DNA of 64,000 bases from Candidatus Shapirobacteria bacterium (GTDB taxonomy: Bacteria; Patescibacteriota; Microgenomatia; UBA12405). Shown piece by piece: positions 37,940 through 64,000 of the stretch. The translations under genes were made by a program, and so were the position numbers. A model generated the notes under the pieces. That model saw only the letters and a program-made list of their open reading frames with translations. It did not search any database and was not told the DNA's origin. The stretch is from NCBI GenBank assembly GCA_041649835.1, contig JBAZML010000001.1:38722-102721 (forward strand). The letters are read 5' to 3'. How positions within the stretch are numbered: the stretch's first letter is position 1; each line of letters opens with the position of its first letter.

Positions 37940-38926
37940 TTAAATTCCAGTAATTAATTGACCACATGCAGAATCTATTGATTGACCAAAAGATTGCCGT
38001 AGAGAAAAGTTTTGATGAGTCTTGCTTAATGCATCTGTAAATATCTTCATTTTGGGAGAAGGAAGCAAGCCACCTTTAATGGGATTTAGGGGAATTAAAT
38101 TTAAATAAAACAAATTATTACTTTTCAAAAGATTTATTAACTCCGACAAGTCGGAGTCTGAATCATTTATATCCTTAATTAAGGCATATTCTAAAAATAA
38201 TTGGCGTCTGGTGTGAACAGTGTAATAATTTAGCGACTTTATTAATTCTTCATACGGATATGTTTTTGCTATTGGCATAATCATTTCCCTCGATTTTTGA
38301 TTTGAAGCGTGAAGAGAAATGGCTAAATTTATCTCAGTATCTAAATCAGCAAAATTATAAATTCGAGGAATAATTCCGGCAGTAGAGATAGATATTTTTC
38401 TGGAGCCTATATCTAGATTTTCTTTTATTATTCTCAGAGAGTCCATTAAATTGTCCCAATTTAAAAATGGTTCACCCATACCCATAAAAACAATTCGACC
38501 AATATATCTCGGAAAAATTTTATGATTCCAGTAAATTATCTGATCAATAATTTCTTCAGAAGTCAGATCTCTTTTTAGACCCATTTTCCCTGTGGCACAG
38601 AAGGCACAACCCAAGGGGCAACCCACCTGCGAAGAAACACAGGCAGTAACCCACTGATCATAATCCATTAATACCGATTCCACGGCTAAATTATCGTTCA
38701 ACTTTAACGCAACTTTTTTGGTATCAATACCTTCAGATAATTTAATTTCTGAGACAGAGAGAAGAGAAAATTTTTCATCGAGACTGGCACGAAGTTCCTT
38801 GGGTAAATCGGTCATTTCAGAAAAAGATTGATAACGTCCCGAAAAATAATTTTTTACAATTTGTCGATATCGAAAACTCGGTAAGTTTAAAGTGTCAAAA
38901 TAATTCTTGATTGCAGTTAGGTCCAC
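37940..38926 (-). CDS. rlmN: Radical-SAM 23S rRNA/tRNA m2A methyltransferase RlmN
   Basis: CxxxCxxC cluster (GCPLGCAFCATG) and an RlmN-type N-terminus. Confidence 0.85.
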   Translation of the reverse strand: MDLTAIKNYFDTLNLPSFRYRQIVKNYFSGRYQSFSEMTDLPKELRASLDEKFSLLSVSEIKLSEGIDTKKVALKLNDNLAVESVLMDYDQWVTACVSSQVGCPLGCAFCATGKMGLKRDLTSEEIIDQIIYWNHKIFPRYIGRIVFMGMGEPFLNWDNLMDSLRIIKENLDIGSRKISISTAGIIPRIYNFADLDTEINLAISLHASNQKSREMIMPIAKTYPYEELIKSLNYYTVHTRRQLFLEYALIKDINDSDSDLSELINLLKSNNLFYLNLIPLNPIKGGLLPSPKMKIFTDALSKTHQNFSLRQSFGQSIDSACGQLITGI

Positions 38927-55348: not shown

Positions 55349-56224
55349 TTATTTCGTTAAACTTTCTATGTACGAGACTTTCAAAAATGTGGGTAGAAGT
55401 TTAAAGGAGGCGATGATGGCATCTAAATCTTGCTGGCCATCCGGTAAACCGCCGGCAGCCAATATCCTTTCACCGACGCCCCCTACATTAATGGGTACGG
55501 CACCTAAAATTCTTGATACATAATATTTTTGATTCGGACCGGATATCTTTCCGGAACTTAAAACAGCTTTTACCTTGGCTTCAACAACTCCATAATTTGA
55601 TGGGTTCTCAACTCTTCCGGCTGATTGGGAACAAATTATTGTGGGTTGGAGATTTCTTGATTTTGGAAGAGCCAACATAACAACACCTGTCCTGTCATTT
55701 GGCAATTCTGAATCTATTTTTTTTAAACATGAATAAACTATTTCAACGGCAGGTAAGGTTTCTCTAACTTTTTTGTTAGCTGATAAAATAGCTTTTTGGG
55801 ATATTTCAGCTCCTTCTAGTGGTTTGATATCTTCAGAAACCGTAACAACCGTCAATCCGGAGATTTTATCAATAGCAAAACCCGGAATAGTAGTAGCGTT
55901 AAAATATATTCCATAGCTAGCGGAAGATCTTTCATCATTTTTAAGTTTTTGTAATTGTCCAGATGCTGATCTACCTCCAACGACCAATGAATATTTTGCT
56001 TGTAAGATAGCTTGATTAGTCAATCTTTGTATTGATTCGTCGTATGTTTCAGTGTTTTCGCCAAATCCTTCATTATCTGAAGTTCGGACTGCCAGTGGAT
56101 AATCATAAGCAAATCCATATGTGACCCTCACAAGAGAATTTTTAACCTGATTTCGAGATAAAATTTCAGTTGCTTTGTCAGCCAATTTGGCAGCTCTAAT
56201 ATATAATTCAACACCATGTTTCAT
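55349..56224 (-). CDS. Hypothetical soluble protein (291 aa)
   Basis: No motif recognised. Co-directional with and tightly spaced to the surface cluster. Confidence 0.4.
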   Translation of the reverse strand: MKHGVELYIRAAKLADKATEILSRNQVKNSLVRVTYGFAYDYPLAVRTSDNEGFGENTETYDESIQRLTNQAILQAKYSLVVGGRSASGQLQKLKNDERSSASYGIYFNATTIPGFAIDKISGLTVVTVSEDIKPLEGAEISQKAILSANKKVRETLPAVEIVYSCLKKIDSELPNDRTGVVMLALPKSRNLQPTIICSQSAGRVENPSNYGVVEAKVKAVLSSGKISGPNQKYYVSRILGAVPINVGGVGERILAAGGLPDGQQDLDAIIASFKLLPTFLKVSYIESLTK

Positions 56225-56271: not shown

Positions 56272-57429
56272 CTATAATTTTATTTGTTTTTCACATTTCT
56301 TTTTCAATGAAAATATTAGAGGTAAAAGAAACGAAAAAATGTTACCAAGATAATAATAAGGAAATTTTTGACAGGTGGATTTTGATAAGTAATAGTCAAA
56401 GATTAGGGATAATATAGAAATTGATAAAGTAATGAAGTGATAGGGACAAATTATTATGTTGACCATGAGCGCTAAAAGAAAAGCAAAAGGAAAAATATTG
56501 ACACAACTGACACCCTCAACACTACCAGTAGTATCTGGAACAGTATCCTGTACACCCAAGATTTCAGAGTTAAAACCGATAGCAGGTTGTTGATTTACTA
56601 AAACTTGACCATTTGGGATAGCTGACACAATATCGGAAAATATACCAGAGGCACAGCCGTTGCCAGTGCGAATCTTAAAATAATAAATAGTGTCAGCGGA
56701 AAGATTATTAATTGTATATGAGTTAATCCCCTTGCCACCAATATTTGGATTACCATATTTTCCGGCATCCGGATTATTGCTATAAGCAATTAGATAATAT
56801 GTAAAATTATCAGTAGGTTCATCCCAAAAAAGCGTAACTGTATTTTGACCACTAATAGTTCGTAAATTTTGAGGAATCTGAAAAGGTGTAGCATCACGAC
56901 ACCGAATATCGATGTCACTTGAGGTGTTTTCATTGGAAGCTATAGTGGGGACAGGAGTGACGTTTTCAGTGTCACATGTAAAATTAAAACTAATATCAAA
57001 ATAGTTGTTTTGTAATTGAAATTCATTGCCTGCCGATTGTTTTAGGGATATTGTCCAGCGATAGTCTTTATATTGATTTCCATCTATATTACCCAATTGA
57101 TGGGTTTTTTCATCAAATATGTCGCTAATTTGTCCCGAATACCAAACATCGCTTCCATTGACTACACTCAATGTTAAAACTGTTGATAAATTATTGGAAT
57201 TTAAAATTGGGTTGAATTTAAATAGAAGATTACAACTATCTGTACGATGATTTATTACTTTTAGAGTTTGCGAATTGATGAATCCGGGGACAATATTTAA
57301 TTCGTTAAAAAATGGTAATTTATGTGACTTGGTGCAGGAATCAGTAGAACAAGTAATGGTTATATCATTGCCAGCAAAAACAGGAGAAGAAAAAATGATT
57401 AAAATAATAAGAAAAATTATTATTTTCAC
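56272..57429 (-). CDS. Secreted/surface protein with a fibronectin-III-like domain and a C-terminal multi-TM anchor
   Basis: Sec signal peptide MKIIIFLIILIIFSSPVFAG. FN3-like segment …TVTLFWDEPTDNFTYYLIAYS…TIYYFKIRT…. The start overlaps the upstream gene stop by 4 nt. Confidence 0.6.
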   Translation of the reverse strand: MKIIIFLIILIIFSSPVFAGNDITITCSTDSCTKSHKLPFFNELNIVPGFINSQTLKVINHRTDSCNLLFKFNPILNSNNLSTVLTLSVVNGSDVWYSGQISDIFDEKTHQLGNIDGNQYKDYRWTISLKQSAGNEFQLQNNYFDISFNFTCDTENVTPVPTIASNENTSSDIDIRCRDATPFQIPQNLRTISGQNTVTLFWDEPTDNFTYYLIAYSNNPDAGKYGNPNIGGKGINSYTINNLSADTIYYFKIRTGNGCASGIFSDIVSAIPNGQVLVNQQPAIGFNSEILGVQDTVPDTTGSVEGVSCVNIFPFAFLLALMVNIIICPYHFITLSISILSLIFDYYLSKSTCQKFPYYYLGNIFSFLLPLIFSLKKKCEKQIKL

Positions 57430-59687
57430 AAATTAAAAATAAATGTTTTTGGCGGAAGGTCACTAAAAGTTACCGTAAAACTACTTCCTAAACCTGAGCT
57501 CGATACACATGTTCCACCACTACTACAGGTGCCTAAATAGAAATCACGAGTTGAGACCCCATCGGTATCAATTGCGTTTGGCAAAATTTGACCATAAATT
57601 TGTTGAGGACCTGAAATATCAGAATAATCAATAGTGTACGACATATCTGAAAGTGTCGTTGACAGACCTGAAATACTGAGAGTAATTTTGGAAACTGAGA
57701 GGCGAGATTCCAAATTAAAAAATGGAGGAGAATTTGTCATTACCCAAGGACCCAAGCCATCAACAATTCTTTGCCATACCGATGTACCCAAATTACTAAC
57801 CGTGGTGGAATCAACTAAATTACCGTCAACAAATAATTTTATTTCACTGAGAACTGAAATGGGGGTTGATAAAATAATATTAAAAGACTGCATGGGCGAA
57901 AGAGTACCCGATAATGAGATAGGTAAGTCGCTATTAATAACATAGGAATATTTACTTAAATCAACCGTTTCACTCTGACTGTTATTAAATAGAGTAATTA
58001 TATTTTGAGAAATTTTATTTAAAACTAATGGTGGTAATACAACGATTGATTGATGATGTATATTTTCAGTATTCTGTGCAGAATCTGTCGATGAGAAACT
58101 AACAATATTTTCCCCTGGAACAAGAATTATTGGTGATGAAGTAGAGGCTATATCTGATCCCAAATCAGTAGCAATATTATCAAAGATACTTGTCTCTCCA
58201 ACCCTGGTATCTAAAGAAAAAATATTAATATTGTCAAGATAAACCCACGAATTATAATCATCACCACTACCGGTATCAGTTAAAGAAAACAATAATTTGA
58301 AAGTTTGACCGGCAAAACTGGTTAAACTGCGGCTAAGAGTTATCCAACCGGAATCATAGTTATAATCATCAGTATTTAAGTTACCAAAATTTAAAATATT
58401 TTCTAAAATATTAGTACCAGAAAGGTCAGTAATATCAACATTAAAATGGTCATAATCTGCTATGTCATGACTAAAAAAATGATAAGAAAATTTTAACGTT
58501 GAAGATGCAGATGCGGGCAGGGAAACCGTTTGATAAAAAGAATCTGTACCATTAATAGTTTTGGCTTCAGAGCCCAAGATATAGACATTGTTGTCAAGGT
58601 CACCGTTATTAATAATGTGATGATCTCCAATAGAAGATGAAACTTGCCAACCCACCATGCCATTTTCAAAATTACCGTTAATTAAGTAATCTTGACCAGT
58701 GCAAATATGATTTGGGAGAGATTGATTGTCGAGATTGGTAGTTGGCGGAATAGTGTCAACTTTTATTTGATTGTAATAATAATCAAAGTCTTTTGTTTCG
58801 ACATTACCAGAAGAATCGGTGGCCACTGATTCGAAACTATATAATCCATCACCTTCTGGGGAGGTAAAATGAAAATTACCCATGGGGCCATAGATTGTTT
58901 CTGAAAATAACTGCCAAGAATTATAGTTGAAAGAATAATATAGTTGAATATAAGCAACAGATTCATTGTCATCAGCAGTGGACATAATATTGAAGTTGTG
59001 AATGTTTTTGGTTGAAATATCCATCAAATCTATTGATGATTCCGGTGGAGTTAACTCTCCGATAGAAAAAGTTATGCCGGAAATTAAACTAGTTGAAGTA
59101 TAAAATGCTGAAATACTTTTAGTAACCTGAACAACAAAAATACTGATAAATAACAGTAGTTGAATAATTATTTTAGGAAATTTCTTTTTTAGATTATTTT
59201 TTATCTTAAATATTTCTGAAATTATTAATAACCCTGCAGGCAAACAGATACCAAAAATAAAACCAAGTGGACGACGGAGAAGTGCAACGATATATCCAAT
59301 GTACGGTATGGAAAATTGATATCGTCCTATTACCCCAACGTCAACAACATCCCACTGATCGATTGTATTGTTATTATCTCCTTTGGTTGAAAACCGTATC
59401 GGATTTGTCGATTTTATTAAATTTATACGATGAAGAATGGTATCTTTTGAATTATTTGGCGAGGCAAAAGCAATAATGTCACCGGTTTTTAAGATATTTG
59501 GATTAATTGGTTTTACAAAAACAAGTGAACCTGATTTGATAAGTGGTTCCATTGAACCACTTACAACAACGAATGATTTGGGAATATTTTGAAAGAATGA
59601 TGGAGAAATAACAAAAAAGACAAATATTGACATGGTAAAAATAATTATCTTTTTTAAAATGTTTGAACTGTTTTTTATATTAAGCAC
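57426..59687 (-). CDS. SipW-type (archaeal/ER-type S26B) signal peptidase fused to a protein with a SipW-cognate signal and a CBM-like domain
   Basis: Residues 1-160: TM, SGSMEP (catalytic Ser box), ILHRINLI (His box), TKGDNN box, TM. Residues ~165-200: KKKFPKIIIQLLLFISIFVVQVTKSISAFYTSTSLISGITFSIGEL resembles TasA/CalY signals. Later, LINGNFENGMVGWQ has a CBM_4_9-like start. Confidence 0.75.
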   Translation of the reverse strand: MLNIKNSSNILKKIIIFTMSIFVFFVISPSFFQNIPKSFVVVSGSMEPLIKSGSLVFVKPINPNILKTGDIIAFASPNNSKDTILHRINLIKSTNPIRFSTKGDNNNTIDQWDVVDVGVIGRYQFSIPYIGYIVALLRRPLGFIFGICLPAGLLIISEIFKIKNNLKKKFPKIIIQLLLFISIFVVQVTKSISAFYTSTSLISGITFSIGELTPPESSIDLMDISTKNIHNFNIMSTADDNESVAYIQLYYSFNYNSWQLFSETIYGPMGNFHFTSPEGDGLYSFESVATDSSGNVETKDFDYYYNQIKVDTIPPTTNLDNQSLPNHICTGQDYLINGNFENGMVGWQVSSSIGDHHIINNGDLDNNVYILGSEAKTINGTDSFYQTVSLPASASSTLKFSYHFFSHDIADYDHFNVDITDLSGTNILENILNFGNLNTDDYNYDSGWITLSRSLTSFAGQTFKLLFSLTDTGSGDDYNSWVYLDNINIFSLDTRVGETSIFDNIATDLGSDIASTSSPIILVPGENIVSFSSTDSAQNTENIHHQSIVVLPPLVLNKISQNIITLFNNSQSETVDLSKYSYVINSDLPISLSGTLSPMQSFNIILSTPISVLSEIKLFVDGNLVDSTTVSNLGTSVWQRIVDGLGPWVMTNSPPFFNLESRLSVSKITLSISGLSTTLSDMSYTIDYSDISGPQQIYGQILPNAIDTDGVSTRDFYLGTCSSGGTCVSSSGLGSSFTVTFSDLPPKTFIFNL

Positions 59688-59733: not shown

Positions 59734-60288
59734 TTACTGTTGGGTGCCAAGAAATTGAAAGGAAAGACCTGACAGAGTTTGACCAGTGTCATTGTTGTCA
59801 ATCCCATTTAAGGAAACTTTCATTTGATATTTTTGAGAATTACCATAACTTATGGAGTCAATTTCAAAACCGGTTGTTTGCCATTGAGATATAGGACCTG
59901 ATGCCAAATCAATCCACGTAGTACCGTTATATTTTTGGAAGCTGACAATAATTTTATTACCGATTACACTCCAGGAGGAAGAATTTGATGCGGGAGAATT
60001 ATCTATTAATTTTGTAAAAATATTTAAACCAATATTTGAAAGACTCGTGTTTTTTAAATAAAACTCTTGGGAACCCAAGAAACCCGGAGCCATATTAGTG
60101 TAATTAGAAACCGGTTCGAAAGTAGTATCCCAGGTATTACCATCAATACTAATTTTGAGATCGGCACTACCAGTACTAAAAGTTAAACCACTGACTGTGG
60201 CAGTAGAACTGAATAGGGCATAGGCGGATGAAGAGACCAGTCCGAGAATAAAAACTATGAGTAAAATACTTGAGACTATTTTTTTCAT
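59734..60288 (-). CDS. TasA/camelysin-like protein with a SipW-cognate-class signal peptide
   Basis: MKKIVSSILLIVFILGLVSSSAYALFSSTATVSGLTFSTGSADL. Compare B. cereus CalY GGGTFAYFSDKEVSNNTFAAGTLDL. No LPXTG. 184 aa. Confidence 0.6.
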   Translation of the reverse strand: MKKIVSSILLIVFILGLVSSSAYALFSSTATVSGLTFSTGSADLKISIDGNTWDTTFEPVSNYTNMAPGFLGSQEFYLKNTSLSNIGLNIFTKLIDNSPASNSSSWSVIGNKIIVSFQKYNGTTWIDLASGPISQWQTTGFEIDSISYGNSQKYQMKVSLNGIDNNDTGQTLSGLSFQFLGTQQ

Positions 60289-60371: not shown

Positions 60372-60977
60372 TCAGATTGATTTTGCTATGATTATCAAAC
60401 GGCTGAGCGTAGTACCCGGAGGCCAACAAGTCATCAAAGTTAGTGTATTAGTGTTTTGTTTATTAGATAAGTAGTTGATATCGGTGTTTTTGACAATCTT
60501 TTTTTCAGCGACTTTATATTTGTACTCACTTTTTTCATAGTTAATTGTAATTTCGTCATCCAAATCAAGCTTGTCTGTCAAATAAAAAATGGCATTAAAT
60601 TGATTGGCCTGATACCAGGAATTGGCTGAGTGAGCAAAGATAAAGATATTACCCGGGAAACCGGGGAGTCCAGAACCTTTGGCATGAGCCACCCCTTTTG
60701 TTAATGCTTTCTGATATTCAGAGGAGTTATAGGGATCAACATTTTTAACCACATTGGCATTGACACCAATTTTAGGAATTTGAATTGAAAAATCTGTGTT
60801 TATCGGTACTATTTGGTCTTTTGATGGTAGTATCTTCTGAGCTTGATAACCAAGTTCCGCCTGTGCTACAGGAAAAAAAGTTTTGACCAAAATAAATGCT
60901 GAAGCGATTACTAGTATGTATCCCAGTGGGCCAAGTATCTTATTTACGACGGGTACTTTTCTTTTTCTCCGAGACAT
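60372..60977 (-). CDS. Sortase-family transpeptidase (paralog 2)
   Basis: N-terminal TM, His in IFIFAHS, Cys in TLTLMTCWPP, Arg in LSRLIII. The start overlaps the 3' end of the adhesin gene by 38 nt. Confidence 0.8.
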   Translation of the reverse strand: MSRRKRKVPVVNKILGPLGYILVIASAFILVKTFFPVAQAELGYQAQKILPSKDQIVPINTDFSIQIPKIGVNANVVKNVDPYNSSEYQKALTKGVAHAKGSGLPGFPGNIFIFAHSANSWYQANQFNAIFYLTDKLDLDDEITINYEKSEYKYKVAEKKIVKNTDINYLSNKQNTNTLTLMTCWPPGTTLSRLIIIAKSI

Positions 60978-63900
60978 ATCTAATTATAAGGACAATTATC
61001 ACTAATGCGAGAATTAGATAAAGCCAGTATTTTTGAATAAAGTTTTTAGCTGCTCCTTGAACACCCAGAACACTTCCTTCGCCGGTAGTCTCTGCTGCAC
61101 CCAAGGTACCTGTGTCATTTGTATTTTCTTGACCAGGAGCTAATGCAACATTAGTAACAGGAATAGCACCAGTGTCTGTATTGATTGTAGTTCCTATAGT
61201 GGTTGTTGTCGTGATTGAGGTGACGACGCTGTCACCAACCGGACTGGAACCATTACCGGCATTATCAAAGGCGCGGATGACATAGTAATAATTTTTGTTA
61301 CAGTCAGGAACCGAGTTGGTAACATCGCGTTCTTCATTGGAACCAACAGAGACTGTGGAGACAACTGAGCCGGCATCTAAAATGAAGTTGGTTATATCAG
61401 CCCGATAGACTTCGACCTTGACTGTTTTTCCGCCATCATCAGCAGTTTTAAAGTGAATTTTGTAGTCACAGTTATTCGGGTGATCTTTACGATAATCATT
61501 TGGTGTACCGGGACCGGAGACTTTATACTCCATAGAAACGGTATTACTATCAACTCCATTGGCCATAACTTTAAATTCATAGCTTCCCTCGGTGCTTAAT
61601 ACTGAGGATAAAGAGCAGTGGTTGGCATTGTAACCGGCGTTTGGAGAAGAAATATCAGCACCAAATTGAGTAAAAGTAGCATCGGTAGAATATTTTTTAA
61701 AACATTTTACGATGACAAAGTTTTGGTCAATGTCCAGAGCGACAAAGTTTAGGTTAACGTCATTGGTATTGATTGGTGACTTTGGTATCTCAAGACGAAC
61801 TGATAAATTACCGACAGCAGTCGCATTATTTGGGAATAAGAAGAAGGCGGCAAATAATAGAATAGACAAAACCTTTTTAGATTTTTTAATTAGAGTAAAG
61901 CCTAGTAATGACATAAGGGTACTAATAATTAACCATGAGGTTGAAGAACCGGTTGAAGGAAGCTCCGTAGAAGCACCCAGGACTTCACCAGTTCTGATTT
62001 CCTGTCGTTCAACTCCGGCTCCAATGGAATTTTGAGTTGATTTAACAACCGGAACAATAGTACCAACAAAAGTTGTATTGACATATTGGGAATCTTCACC
62101 TTGGGCATAAACTGTACTAGATTGATATTTAGCATTGCCCATGGCTACGGCTAAATCAGTGTATTCGCCAGGTTGTTGATCTGTACTGATATCGGCAATA
62201 TAACTTAGTTCGACAACATCACCGGCTTTCAAATCACCTAAATTCCAAACTCCAGGAGAATGATATTGAGGTTCGATAATACTACCAGTAACATCGGTAC
62301 CACCAATAGATACGTGGTAAGAACCTAAACGATATTTAAATCCATTTGATAAGAGATCGGTAACCTTGAATCCGGTTACATCATTACCTAAAATTTTGAC
62401 TTTTATTTTGTATCCAACTGAGGAACCGGGAGACAGGTCGCCGACTGCATCGTTGGTTTTTGAGATGGTAGCAGTGGGAGTAACAAGACGGTTTCCAATG
62501 AAACATTGTATATTATCGCCAGCCTTGACGGTAACGAGTTTATGATTATATGAATCACTATCGGCCTGGGCACTGACAGATTTAACGAATTTAAAAGCAG
62601 CTTCACAAGCATCACCAGTTCCGTCACCATTTGAGTCCGTTTGACTTGCATTAGCAACGGAAGGACAATTATCTTCGCTGTCACATATTTCATCCCTGTC
62701 AATATCAGAACAATTACCTTGGGTTGGAGTAGCAGTAGGTTGTTGACAGTGACCATTTCCTGATGGGTTGTTACCGGTAACACAGACCAATCCACTACAA
62801 CAACTTTTTTCGGAATTGTTTATCTGACACTCAGCGTTTTCGTGTTTACACTGAGGAGCTTGTGTTGGACCAGTTGTTGGTGTCTGAGTTACTGTTGGAG
62901 TAGGTCTGGAATCACTAGAACACGTGATTCCAGTTTGAGTCCAACCATCTTGCATGACCTCACTTAAGGTATAAGTGCTTGGAGTAAGTTGATCAAAAAT
63001 AGCCCCTTTATTACCGGTGATTTTTGTATCGCCGGATAAATTGACAATCCAGCCAGGTAAAACTTTGTCGATATCTTCATTATATTTACCATCGTTATCA
63101 ATATCGTTAAATTTAGTGACATTTATTTGACCTAATTGTTGATTACCAAAATTATATTCATGACCAGAAACATAATTTGTACTATTTGGAAATTGACCAG
63201 AATTACCGTCAGGTAGACTGATTAAATGACAATTATCGTCTTTATCAGTAGTTGGATATATTGGTCTCCAACCATCTTGTAAAACTTCACAAACTTTATA
63301 TTGACCTGGAAGAAGATTTTCAAACCAGTACCAACCGAAGTGTGACGTACCGATGTCAGTATTCATCGTTTTTATTGGAGTAGGTTCATAGCCACCAGCA
63401 TTGTTTGATTTATATAGATTTATCGTCCAACCAGGTAATAATTCTTCGTTGAAGCTGGAAACTGGACCACCACTACCATCAGCATCACTCCACTTGTAAC
63501 CATGAATGGAACCTTCGGGTTGGTTTCCGAAATACATTTGATTGTTGGATTCATTATCAACATGCATTGTATAGCTTTGACAATTACCGGTAGTTAAAGT
63601 CCAACCATCTTGTTTGACTTCTTTTATCCAATAGGTTTGGCCTAAATATAGGTTCTCAAAACTAGCAGTACCTGGTTTGCCTAAATCACCGTTTGTTATT
63701 GCAGTCATGCTTGGAGATCCAGTACAAGTGTTATTTTCATAGAGTTCAAATGTCCAACCGTCTAAAAATCTTTCACTCTCTTCTATTGTTTGATTACCGT
63801 TCAAATCTTCGAATTTACTGACATAGAGGGGAGAGGCAATTTTAGTATTAGTAAAGACACAAGTAATCGTCTCACCCGAATCAAGCTCTAAATTACCGTA

Positions 63901-64000
63901 AGTTTCAGTATCTCCAATTGAACTAGTGCAAGTTTTGTCAGTCAATACCCATCCCGGAGGTACTATTTCGTTAAAGCTGTAAGTTCCAGCAATTAACCAA
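60940..64000 (-). CDS. Large cell-surface adhesin-like protein. The N-terminus lies beyond the window. It has Cna-B/SdrD-B-like repeats, a TSP3 repeat, an internal LPSTG sorting signal, then a second signal-like segment, an FN3-like module and a C-terminal TM anchor.
   Basis: The reading frame stays open from the window edge (64000) down to the stop at 60940. The ORF-track start at 63945 is a TTG. Repeated …DxDGxGxxxxxExxLxGWTFxLY… units. LPSTG-SSTSWLIISTLMSLLGFTLI-KKSKK is encoded at about 61860..61962. Confidence 0.8.
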   Translation of the reverse strand, partial: WLIAGTYSFNEIVPPGWVLTDKTCTSSIGDTETYGNLELDSGETITCVFTNTKIASPLYVSKFEDLNGNQTIEESERFLDGWTFELYENNTCTGSPSMTAITNGDLGKPGTASFENLYLGQTYWIKEVKQDGWTLTTGNCQSYTMHVDNESNNQMYFGNQPEGSIHGYKWSDADGSGGPVSSFNEELLPGWTINLYKSNNAGGYEPTPIKTMNTDIGTSHFGWYWFENLLPGQYKVCEVLQDGWRPIYPTTDKDDNCHLISLPDGNSGQFPNSTNYVSGHEYNFGNQQLGQINVTKFNDIDNDGKYNEDIDKVLPGWIVNLSGDTKITGNKGAIFDQLTPSTYTLSEVMQDGWTQTGITCSSDSRPTPTVTQTPTTGPTQAPQCKHENAECQINNSEKSCCSGLVCVTGNNPSGNGHCQQPTATPTQGNCSDIDRDEICDSEDNCPSVANASQTDSNGDGTGDACEAAFKFVKSVSAQADSDSYNHKLVTVKAGDNIQCFIGNRLVTPTATISKTNDAVGDLSPGSSVGYKIKVKILGNDVTGFKVTDLLSNGFKYRLGSYHVSIGGTDVTGSIIEPQYHSPGVWNLGDLKAGDVVELSYIADISTDQQPGEYTDLAVAMGNAKYQSSTVYAQGEDSQYVNTTFVGTIVPVVKSTQNSIGAGVERQEIRTGEVLGASTELPSTGSSTSWLIISTLMSLLGFTLIKKSKKVLSILLFAAFFLFPNNATAVGNLSVRLEIPKSPINTNDVNLNFVALDIDQNFVIVKCFKKYSTDATFTQFGADISSPNAGYNANHCSLSSVLSTEGSYEFKVMANGVDSNTVSMEYKVSGPGTPNDYRKDHPNNCDYKIHFKTADDGGKTVKVEVYRADITNFILDAGSVVSTVSVGSNEERDVTNSVPDCNKNYYYVIRAFDNAGNGSSPVGDSVVTSITTTTTIGTTINTDTGAIPVTNVALAPGQENTNDTGTLGAAETTGEGSVLGVQGAAKNFIQKYWLYLILALVIIVLIIRYVSEKKKSTRRK

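Follow-up and report, generated by a model that had tools for sequence, protein, structure and literature searches.

A 64,000-nucleotide stretch of the Candidatus Shapirobacteria bacterium assembly GCA_041649835.1 (contig JBAZML010000001.1, forward-strand positions 38,722 to 102,721; hereafter the window, numbered from its first letter) encodes a SipW-like signal peptidase and a large, predicted extracellular cargo as one uninterrupted polypeptide. As a rule, signal peptidases are separate proteins and encounter their substrates in trans. Here, the peptidase runs in frame into a segment resembling the signal peptide of a neighbouring TasA-family fibre subunit, and from there into the cargo. 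We consider it probable that the fused SipW cuts this internal signal and thereby frees the cargo as a TapA-like fibre initiator or tip protein. The individual parts are known, namely an S26B peptidase, a signal of the TIGR04088 type, the TasA fold, and TapA-type strand donation. What is new is that they are covalently joined, that the signal lies inside the chain, and that they occur in a three-part cassette. Searches of open-access papers and bioRxiv for SipW-substrate fusions, SipW in the Candidate Phyla Radiation (CPR), self-cleaved internal signals, and TasA in Patescibacteria yielded no account of this architecture, nor any structure of SipW with a substrate.

The gene occupies the following open reading frame (ORF), in a window with a G+C content of about 35%.

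57426..59687, minus strand: whole fusion ORF, 753 amino acids (aa), 82.9 kDa, GTG start.

Both the ORF listing and a direct reading of the frame place its sole in-frame stop at codon 754. An initial interpretation made from the letters of the window (the sequence-only reading) had proposed that neither a stop nor an in-frame Met separates peptidase and cargo. The first point is borne out by the stop at codon 754, and the second extends to all three start codons considered, as ATG, GTG, and TTG are absent in frame between codons 149 and 221. With no start at the junction, the cargo can be produced only as part of the fusion. The start of the gene itself is ambiguous. The GTG at 59687 yields a basic n-region and a full first transmembrane segment (TM1), as in homologs (59630..59687); public gene calls start at the ATG of codon 19 (M19), giving 735 aa, which would truncate TM1. 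A 100%-identical fusion protein (P0001) is present on two contigs, the second being a Logan assembly of run SRR8542065.

The peptidase half displays the following features, with helices taken from the sequence and from an AlphaFold2 (AF2) model.

59217..59669, minus strand: SipW-like (S26B, archaeal-type) signal peptidase I domain, aa 7-157, matched by TIGR02228.
59592..59648, minus strand: TM1, aa 14-32, after a basic N-terminus (K5, K12, K13); AF2 helix 4-31.
59553..59555, minus strand: codon of S45, the predicted nucleophile, in SGSMEP.
59430..59432, minus strand: codon of H86 (HRI), the predicted counterpart of the general base of endoplasmic reticulum (ER)/archaeal-type peptidases.
59376..59378, minus strand: codon of D104 (TKGDNN).
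59208..59267, minus strand: TM2, aa 141-160, predicted to bring the chain back to the cytoplasm; AF2 helix 140-165.

Profile and motif evidence confirms this domain as a complete S26B, SipW-like signal peptidase I with predicted activity, as the sequence-only reading had proposed for the first ~160 aa. TIGR02228 matches aa 7-157 at model positions 3-153 of 158 with 97.1 bits, well above its curated cutoff of 51.85, and the Pfam S26 match falls slightly below threshold. The S26B hallmarks are all in place: Ser in SxSMxP, His instead of the Lys of bacterial P-type enzymes, Asp in GDN, and two flanking TMs. We take the roles of S45, H86, D104, and D110 to be those indicated by mutagenesis of Bacillus subtilis SipW. 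The Bacillus SipW equivalog model NF046067 scores 90.7 bits, under its 190-bit cutoff; by these scores the domain is SipW-like and no equivalog of the Bacillus enzyme. No second SipW turned up in the window, though the TasA-like neighbour requires one.

Beyond TM2, the junction comprises KIKNNLKKKFPK (161-172), IIIQLLLFISIFVVQV (173-188), TKSISA (189-194), FYTSTSLISGITFSIG (195-210), and ELTPPESS, in that order. Its parts, together with the neighbouring gene to which they are compared, are as follows (↓ marks a predicted cut).

59172..59207, minus strand: Lys-rich, predicted cytoplasmic loop KIKNNLKKKFPK, aa 161-172, six Lys, candidate n-region of the internal signal.
59106..59171, minus strand: h-region IIIQLLLFISIFVVQV and c-region TKSISA, aa 173-194.
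59058..59105, minus strand: beta0-like strand FYTSTSLISGITFSIG, aa 195-210, predicted mature N-terminus of the cargo.
59734..60288, minus strand: 184-aa TasA-family fibre subunit with a SipW-type signal (cleavage AYA↓LF) and a beta0 strand.

This order reproduces the n/h/c layout of a SipW-type signal (KKKFPK / IIIQLLLFISIFVVQV / ISA↓FY / ITFSIG), and the motif A↓x[FY]..TFSxG anticipated at the junction is indeed present. The hydrophobic stretch is 16 residues long. Cleavage is predicted after A194, between nucleotides (nt) 59106 and 59105, with S193↓A194 as an alternative. Instead of opening the precursor, the signal follows the peptidase, after the first 160 residues. Under the positive-inside rule, both the basic N-terminus and the loop rich in Lys would be cytoplasmic, and the catalytic domain and everything past residue 189 would lie outside. 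Such a topology places the putative cleavage site on the active-site face of the membrane.

Three comparisons connect the internal segment to the N-terminus of the 184-aa neighbour, in line with the relationship suspected in the sequence-only reading. BLASTP aligned KIIIQLLLFISIFVVQVTKSISAFYTSTSLISGITFSIG of the junction to KIVSSILLIVFILGLVSSSAYALFSSTATVSGLTFSTG of the neighbour, an alignment of 41 aa with 39% identity (E=3e-5). A hidden Markov model (HMM) was trained on the corresponding segments of relatives and used to scan the window's 110 six-frame ORFs of 80 aa or longer; apart from the fusion, only the N-terminus of the neighbour matched significantly (E=4e-8). When profiles were compared with each other, the internal segments matched the TasA-like family with a probability of 96.7% and E=4e-10 over 33 columns, which reach from the h-region across the cleavage site into the first mature strand. 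The agreement of these methods indicates a likeness beyond chance. The neighbour itself passes TIGR04088 (20-23 bits, cutoff 19) and matches PF12389 at its gathering score, which together with its TasA jelly-roll fold places it in the TasA/camelysin family; NCBI annotates a 100%-identical copy as 'TasA family protein'.

Homologs in which peptidase and cargo are separate genes provide a further line of evidence. P0023, a close relative of the cargo, lacks the peptidase and begins with MKKHLIKILLLVFLLSVHKISGTNS↓FYSSG at the position aligned to the internal segment. At its locus (L001), a 181-aa sipW gene precedes a 705-aa cargo gene that starts with GTG in a different frame and overlaps sipW by 20 nt. 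The locus is syntenic with the window and has genes for a SpaA-type protein, a sortase, a 184-aa protein, SipW, the cargo, an fn3 protein, HAD, CAP, and TrmD. A second Shapirobacteria locus (L014) encodes a 178-aa SipW and a 713-aa cargo with a 17-nt overlap, and its cargo starts with MARKLNRILVILVVVCFHFLPSTNA↓YFIGQ. Both cargo starts follow the pattern M/V-KK-h-region-TNS/TNA↓[FY], and N-terminal signals also occur in the standalone cargo proteins P0041, P0108, P0159, and P0228. The sipW genes of L001 and L014 are similar to each other and diverged from the fused ones, so the split state reflects no recent frameshift. By alignment, this is a Rosetta-stone case: the segment that serves as an N-terminal signal in the split genes lies inside the chain in the fused ones.

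Conservation among the fused relatives supports the same assignment. A first search returned 38 clusters from JGI, ENA, NCBI, and Logan (33-100% identity, 559-1047 aa), 37 of them fused and one (P0023) a cargo alone; the few named clusters are Woesebacteria or Shapirobacteria 'signal peptidase I'. A further, exhaustive search among cluster representatives brought in about 140 more at 50% identity. The counted set consists of 181 proteins plus the window protein, the members being representatives of 90%- and 50%-identity clusters. Within it, 117 proteins combine a SipW domain with a tail of at least 60 aa, at identities down to ~30%. The catalytic Ser is retained in all 111 relatives that cover its position, and H86, D104, and D110 in 117/117 each; the six relatives without the Ser are gene calls that begin at the Met of SMEP, inside SGSMEP. 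A194 is almost invariant in the alignment of relatives, and S208 is invariant.

A strict regular expression spanning loop, h-region, cleavage site, and strand matches 95 of the 117, and most of the others fit by eye. Among the 95 strict matches, the -1 position is Ala in 79 and Ser in 16, the -3 position is I, A, V, T, S, or L in 89, and the second residue after the cut (P2') is Phe or Tyr in 84 (88%) and Leu in 11. In 93% of relatives, the loop ahead of the h-region carries a net positive charge. The uncharged stretch preceding the site has a median of 21 residues, equal to that of N-terminal TasA-like signals, and its length distribution is likewise equal. Short fused relatives of 300-360 aa were considered as direct SipW-TasA fusions and rejected, as none matches PF12389. 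Two GTDB loci (L037 and L043) encode SipW proteins of 225-246 aa with a third hydrophobic segment, followed by GA↓YFSDLEVS.. and then ~30 Pro/Thr-rich residues; the L043 ORF (5962-6639) lies downstream of three camelysin-like genes. Their tail fits a 'cargo' pared down to a donor-strand-like peptide and the release of a bare primer peptide.

A taxonomic scan with one genome per GTDB species covered 79 loci, with each match extended to its ORF. Motif-bearing fusions came from Patescibacteria records, among them Shapirobacteria, Saccharibacteria (L021, L022), and Microgenomatus (L073). Several further ones stand under implausible placeholder names such as 'uncultured Gammaproteobacteria (binchicken)' or 'Methanoperedens', and several loci so named (e.g. 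L005-L007, L015) encode full-length relatives of the Shapirobacteria fusion protein. Standalone proteins of 163-222 aa make up the roughly 30 SipWs from Firmicutes and five of the six from archaea; the remaining archaeal one, of a haloarchaeon (L035), carries an unrelated extension without the motif. On these sequences, and with the implausible record names not taken at face value, the fusion appeared confined to Patescibacteria among the 79 loci. The expectation that separate sipW and substrate genes are the norm is thus upheld outside this group.

The cargo (aa 195-753) comprises 559 aa, and its predicted released form has a computed mass of 61.2 kDa and an acidic isoelectric point of 4.05. 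Two regions follow the beta0-like strand.

57747..59057, minus strand: middle of the cargo, aa 211-647, a predicted chain of beta-sandwich modules in the order Ig-like, jelly-roll/MAM- or CBM-like (NGNFENG start), Ig-like, LTD-like.
57429..57746, minus strand: C-terminal ~110-aa Cys-pair domain (..YTIDY..RDFYLGTCSSGGTC..).

The AF2 model, computed with 24 sequences, has a mean predicted local distance difference test (pLDDT) score of 80.9 and an all-beta ectodomain, with block means of ~76-94 in the middle region. Around the putative cleavage site, over residues 188-211, pLDDT drops below 50, and the predicted flexibility there speaks for cleavage. This is consistent with the ~550 aa of extracytoplasmic sequence foreseen in the sequence-only reading. 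Its more specific label for the start of this region, 'CBM-like', is loosely supported: the NGNFENG module is jelly-roll/CBM-like and Foldseek returned CBMs, but Pfam matches on the window cargo (Big_13, InhA-like_MAM, and LTD, the last with E=0.13) are sub-threshold only. LTD, Big_13, and fn3 are significant in relatives. A Foldseek search of the whole 753-aa model against PDB gave only generic fn3 tandems, CBMs, and adhesins, and no TasA-like domain in the cargo.

Of the 117 fused proteins, 89 carry the Cys-pair domain, in 88 cases no more than 29 aa from the C-terminus; Y684, G699, C721, and G725 are invariant in the alignment. It matches no Pfam or NCBIfam family, and a profile search gave only small CPR proteins; it is an undescribed small extracellular domain. 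In CPR proteins of ~150 aa (P0218-P0231), the same domain (..YEIxY..RDFYLGTCSxGGxC..) also stands by itself after an N-terminal TM anchor. In P0228, it directly follows a SipW-type signal and strand. Homology of this domain to TasA was considered and rejected (hhalign E=0.083).

Cargo and TasA-like protein align over the first 16 residues of the cargo, against residues 25-40 of the neighbour (hhalign E=5.7e-5), and PF12389 has no match on aa 195-753, so the TasA-fold core is missing from its profile matches. A shared stretch limited to the first ~16 mature residues suggests that the cargo plays a TapA-like part. By analogy, the cargo would work like TapA, which implies no claim of membership in the TapA family.

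Downstream of the fusion lies a third protein with a partial relationship to TasA.

56272..57429, minus strand: 385-aa protein with signal, TasA-like core, fn3, and TM-like parts; its start overlaps the fusion stop by 4 nt.
56977..57312, minus strand: TasA-like core without beta0, aa 40-151 of the 385-aa protein, by hhalign.

This protein has an ordinary signal peptide (VFA↓GND), an fn3 domain (E=4e-8), and a C-terminal hydrophobic, TM-like region. Its core aligns with the TasA-like profile (aa 40-151 vs 60-180) with a probability of 97.2% and E=4e-11 over 109 columns, and by eye it begins at the strand after beta0 (GNDITITC vs SADLKISI). Genes of this type lie directly downstream of SipW or SipW-cargo in L001, L002, L004, L014, and L084, and the same five loci keep the full trio of TasA-like subunit(s), SipW(-cargo), and core-only/fn3/TM protein. 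The profile matches thus suggest a cassette of strand-only, strand-plus-core, and core-only proteins. By analogy, the 385-aa protein may be a membrane-anchored acceptor or terminator of the fibre.

The closest comparison is the B. subtilis tapA-sipW-tasA operon, in which SipW matures both TasA and TapA (PMC10151520). Mature TapA complements a TasA protomer with the strand at its TasA-like N-terminus and is found at a filament end, and F29 of TasA, its P2' residue, is the most conserved residue of the interface (PMC10151520). The stop and start codons of tapA and sipW overlap, and both products are similarly low in abundance (PMC10151520). As in that operon, the window has an ER/archaeal-type peptidase gene beside a TasA-fold subunit gene, and an accessory protein whose N-terminus, here predicted to be SipW-generated, resembles the TasA donor strand. 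Differences lie in the joining of both functions in one polypeptide and in the order, sipW-cargo rather than tapA-sipW, which makes the signal peptide internal (aa 161-194). Moreover, the cargo is much larger than TapA, with several modules and a CPR-specific Cys-pair domain at its end; the cassette has a third member, the core-only TasA-like/fn3/TM protein; and the SipW domain scores below the Bacillus equivalog cutoff.

Similar loci in Bacillus cereus (sipW-calY1-bc1280-calY2) and Clostridium perfringens (sipW-bsaA) also place SipW beside camelysin/TasA subunits with TIGR04088-type signals, and one paralog or accessory protein has been proposed in the TapA role (PMC10151520, PMC11580942). 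Unlike the fusion, the genes of these loci are all separate, and no peptidase-substrate fusion is known from them. A TapA-like strand role has also been proposed for the archaeal protein AbpB (PMC9245690). The ABP operon of the Pyrobaculum bundling pili (AbpA/AbpB), which we compared together with other donor-strand fibres (CanX cannulae and Sulfolobus threads), showed no dedicated peptidase gene nearby and has no fusion. In flavivirus and bunyavirus polyproteins, internal hydrophobic signals restart translocation and are cut by signal peptidase across the membrane. These viral systems use a separate host peptidase, whereas the fusion has the peptidase in the chain that bears the site. Streptococcus pyogenes SipA is an S26A-type homolog that lacks the catalytic residues and acts as a chaperone. 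Like SipA/LepA (PMC4049620), the window protein is a signal peptidase I homolog dedicated to a surface-fibre locus, with a sortase and SpaA-type proteins encoded there too. Unlike SipA, its S26B domain retains Ser, His, and Asp and is fused to a putative substrate.

From this arrangement, we infer the following route. The precursor would insert with its N-terminus inside, followed by TM1, an external catalytic domain, TM2, and the Lys-rich loop in the cytoplasm. The third hydrophobic segment would act as an internal signal peptide that re-exports the chain, and the SipW active site of the same or a neighbouring molecule would then cut after A194 (I-S-A↓F-Y). Two products are predicted, a basic, three-TM peptidase of 21.7 kDa whose C-terminal helix is the retained signal peptide, and a free 61-kDa acidic, all-beta extracellular cargo. 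The new N-terminus of the cargo, FYTSTSLISGITFSIG, would mimic the beta0 donor strand of the 184-aa TasA-like subunit, which the same fused peptidase would also mature. Donation of the cargo strand to a TasA-like subunit could initiate or cap a donor-strand-linked fibre, with the Ig-like, jelly-roll, and LTD-like modules as a probable adhesive head and the 385-aa core-only protein as the likely membrane-anchored acceptor of the free strand at the opposite fibre end. In this form, the fusion would enforce 1:1 production and co-localisation of peptidase and initiator.

Several observations weigh against such self-processing. TIGR04088 (34 positions, cutoff 19 bits) gave no match on the internal segment of the window protein at E<=10, and it stays sub-threshold at the internal position of relatives (16.2 bits in P0147 and 18.5 in P0172). 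The standalone cargo P0108 reaches 16.7 bits. Since this model misses the internal segment, custom profiles and split orthologs were relied on instead. In the AF2 model, the putative site is not docked in the active site; a continuous, low-confidence helix (173-199) runs through it. The signal peptide, if it stays on as the C-terminal helix, might obstruct the substrate groove, and the conservation of A↓x[FY] could partly reflect the structural role of the strand. L037 and L043 indicate that the third helix and its motif may have their own role within SipW. Fibre polarity and the assignment of tip and anchor are drawn from analogy.

Some of these points would also suit a permanent fusion in which the third segment is an uncleaved TM anchor and the ectodomain stays tethered, for example as a docking platform for TasA subunits or as an anchored adhesin. 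The helix through the putative site and the short-tailed L037 and L043 agree with such a tether, the motif after the site is structural in TasA fibres, which means that conservation alone is no proof of cleavage, and TapA of B. subtilis co-localises with the membrane (PMC10151520). We nonetheless regard a tether as unlikely: an Ala or Ser at -1 and a small or aliphatic residue at -3 are kept as in truly cleaved N-terminal signals, the hydrophobic stretch is only 16 residues long in a family whose length distribution equals that of such signals, and split orthologs carry the segment as an N-terminal signal peptide. Furthermore, A28/F29 of TasA beta0 occupy a conserved pocket between protomers, into which a strand preceded by a membrane helix would be hard to fit. 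At the other extreme stands an obligate, single-turnover self-cleavage in cis, where one cut yields one initiator, the retained ...SISA helix gates the active site, and the peptidase serves TasA-like subunits only thereafter. One peptidase would found one fibre, its base (the core-only protein) and its tip (the cargo) would be specified by complementary halves of the TasA fold, and short tails of the L043 type would release a bare primer peptide. We see this elaboration as quite improbable.

Cleavage by another enzyme is a further alternative, in which a housekeeping LepB-type peptidase cuts the internal signal and the fused SipW serves the TasA-like subunit only. The -3/-1 pattern (I-S-A, A-K-A, etc.) suits general type I signal peptidases as well, and the analysis saw the 64-kb window rather than the remainder of the genome. 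This explanation seems highly doubtful to us. TasA, with Phe at P2', is cleaved by its dedicated SipW, and Escherichia coli LepB is inefficient on aromatic P2' residues (PMC10269814); the predominance of Phe/Tyr at this position among the relatives therefore argues for SipW over a housekeeping enzyme. The segment is also homologous to the SipW-cognate signal of the neighbour, and covalent linkage puts the site beside the SipW active site. Finally, an indel in the A-rich junction, or internal initiation, might disguise what are really two proteins. Two A6 runs lie in the junction loop DNA (59172..59207), and the 17-20-nt overlaps of the split orthologs fall in an A-rich stretch where one indel would interconvert the two forms. 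Even so, we give this account next to no credence. The fused frame recurs in the 117 relatives from JGI, ENA, NCBI, and Logan assemblies and in the identical ORF on the SRR8542065 contig, which excludes an assembly artefact for the family and makes it very unlikely for the source genome. Both other frames at the junction are rich in stops, the junction lacks in-frame start codons, and the split-locus SipWs form a diverged sub-lineage rather than frameshifted copies.

Patescibacteria are thought to depend on surface appendages for their epibiotic lifestyle. As a natural and widely conserved covalent precursor of enzyme and probable substrate, the fusion would offer a small model in which to examine recognition of a membrane-embedded signal peptide by an ER/archaeal-type peptidase. 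It also supplies independent Rosetta-stone evidence for the suspected physical and functional coupling between SipW and TapA-type initiators in TasA fibre assembly, and it shows Patescibacteria to encode a TasA-type fibre cassette with strand-only, strand-plus-core, and core-only members. In addition, it exposes a systematic annotation gap, in which fusions of 300-1050 aa are labelled merely 'signal peptidase I'.

Other genes in the vicinity complete the picture of the locus. Downstream of the cassette, a 291-aa ORF (55349..56224, minus strand) has no Pfam or NCBIfam match, and a gene of the same length occurs in L084. On the other side, a sortase gene (60372..60977, minus strand) matches Pfam Sortase with E=4e-22, stays below every class-specific NCBIfam cutoff, and overlaps the 3' end of the gene for an LPSTG protein by 38 nt. 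The sortase adjoins the TasA-like cassette in the window, L001, and L084, but not in L002 and L004, which makes the sortase and TasA-like systems neighbours rather than one unit. The SpaA-type gene, like the sortase, is not always beside the cassette.

The LPSTG protein is of the SpaA/SdrD type (60940..64000, minus strand) and extends past the end of the window; its counterpart in L001 (1345-6207) has 1620 aa. Its LPSTG motif (61948..61962), TM, and KKSKK lie ~340 aa ahead of the C-terminus. After KKSKK, the frame continues into a signal-like segment, VLSILLFAAFFLFPNNATA↓VG (ATA↓VG near 61816..61824), an ectodomain of ~280 aa, and a TM with a basic tail. The sortase operon thus holds what looks like a second in-frame fusion, in which two exported proteins are joined via their sorting and secretion signals, and this layout is conserved in L001.

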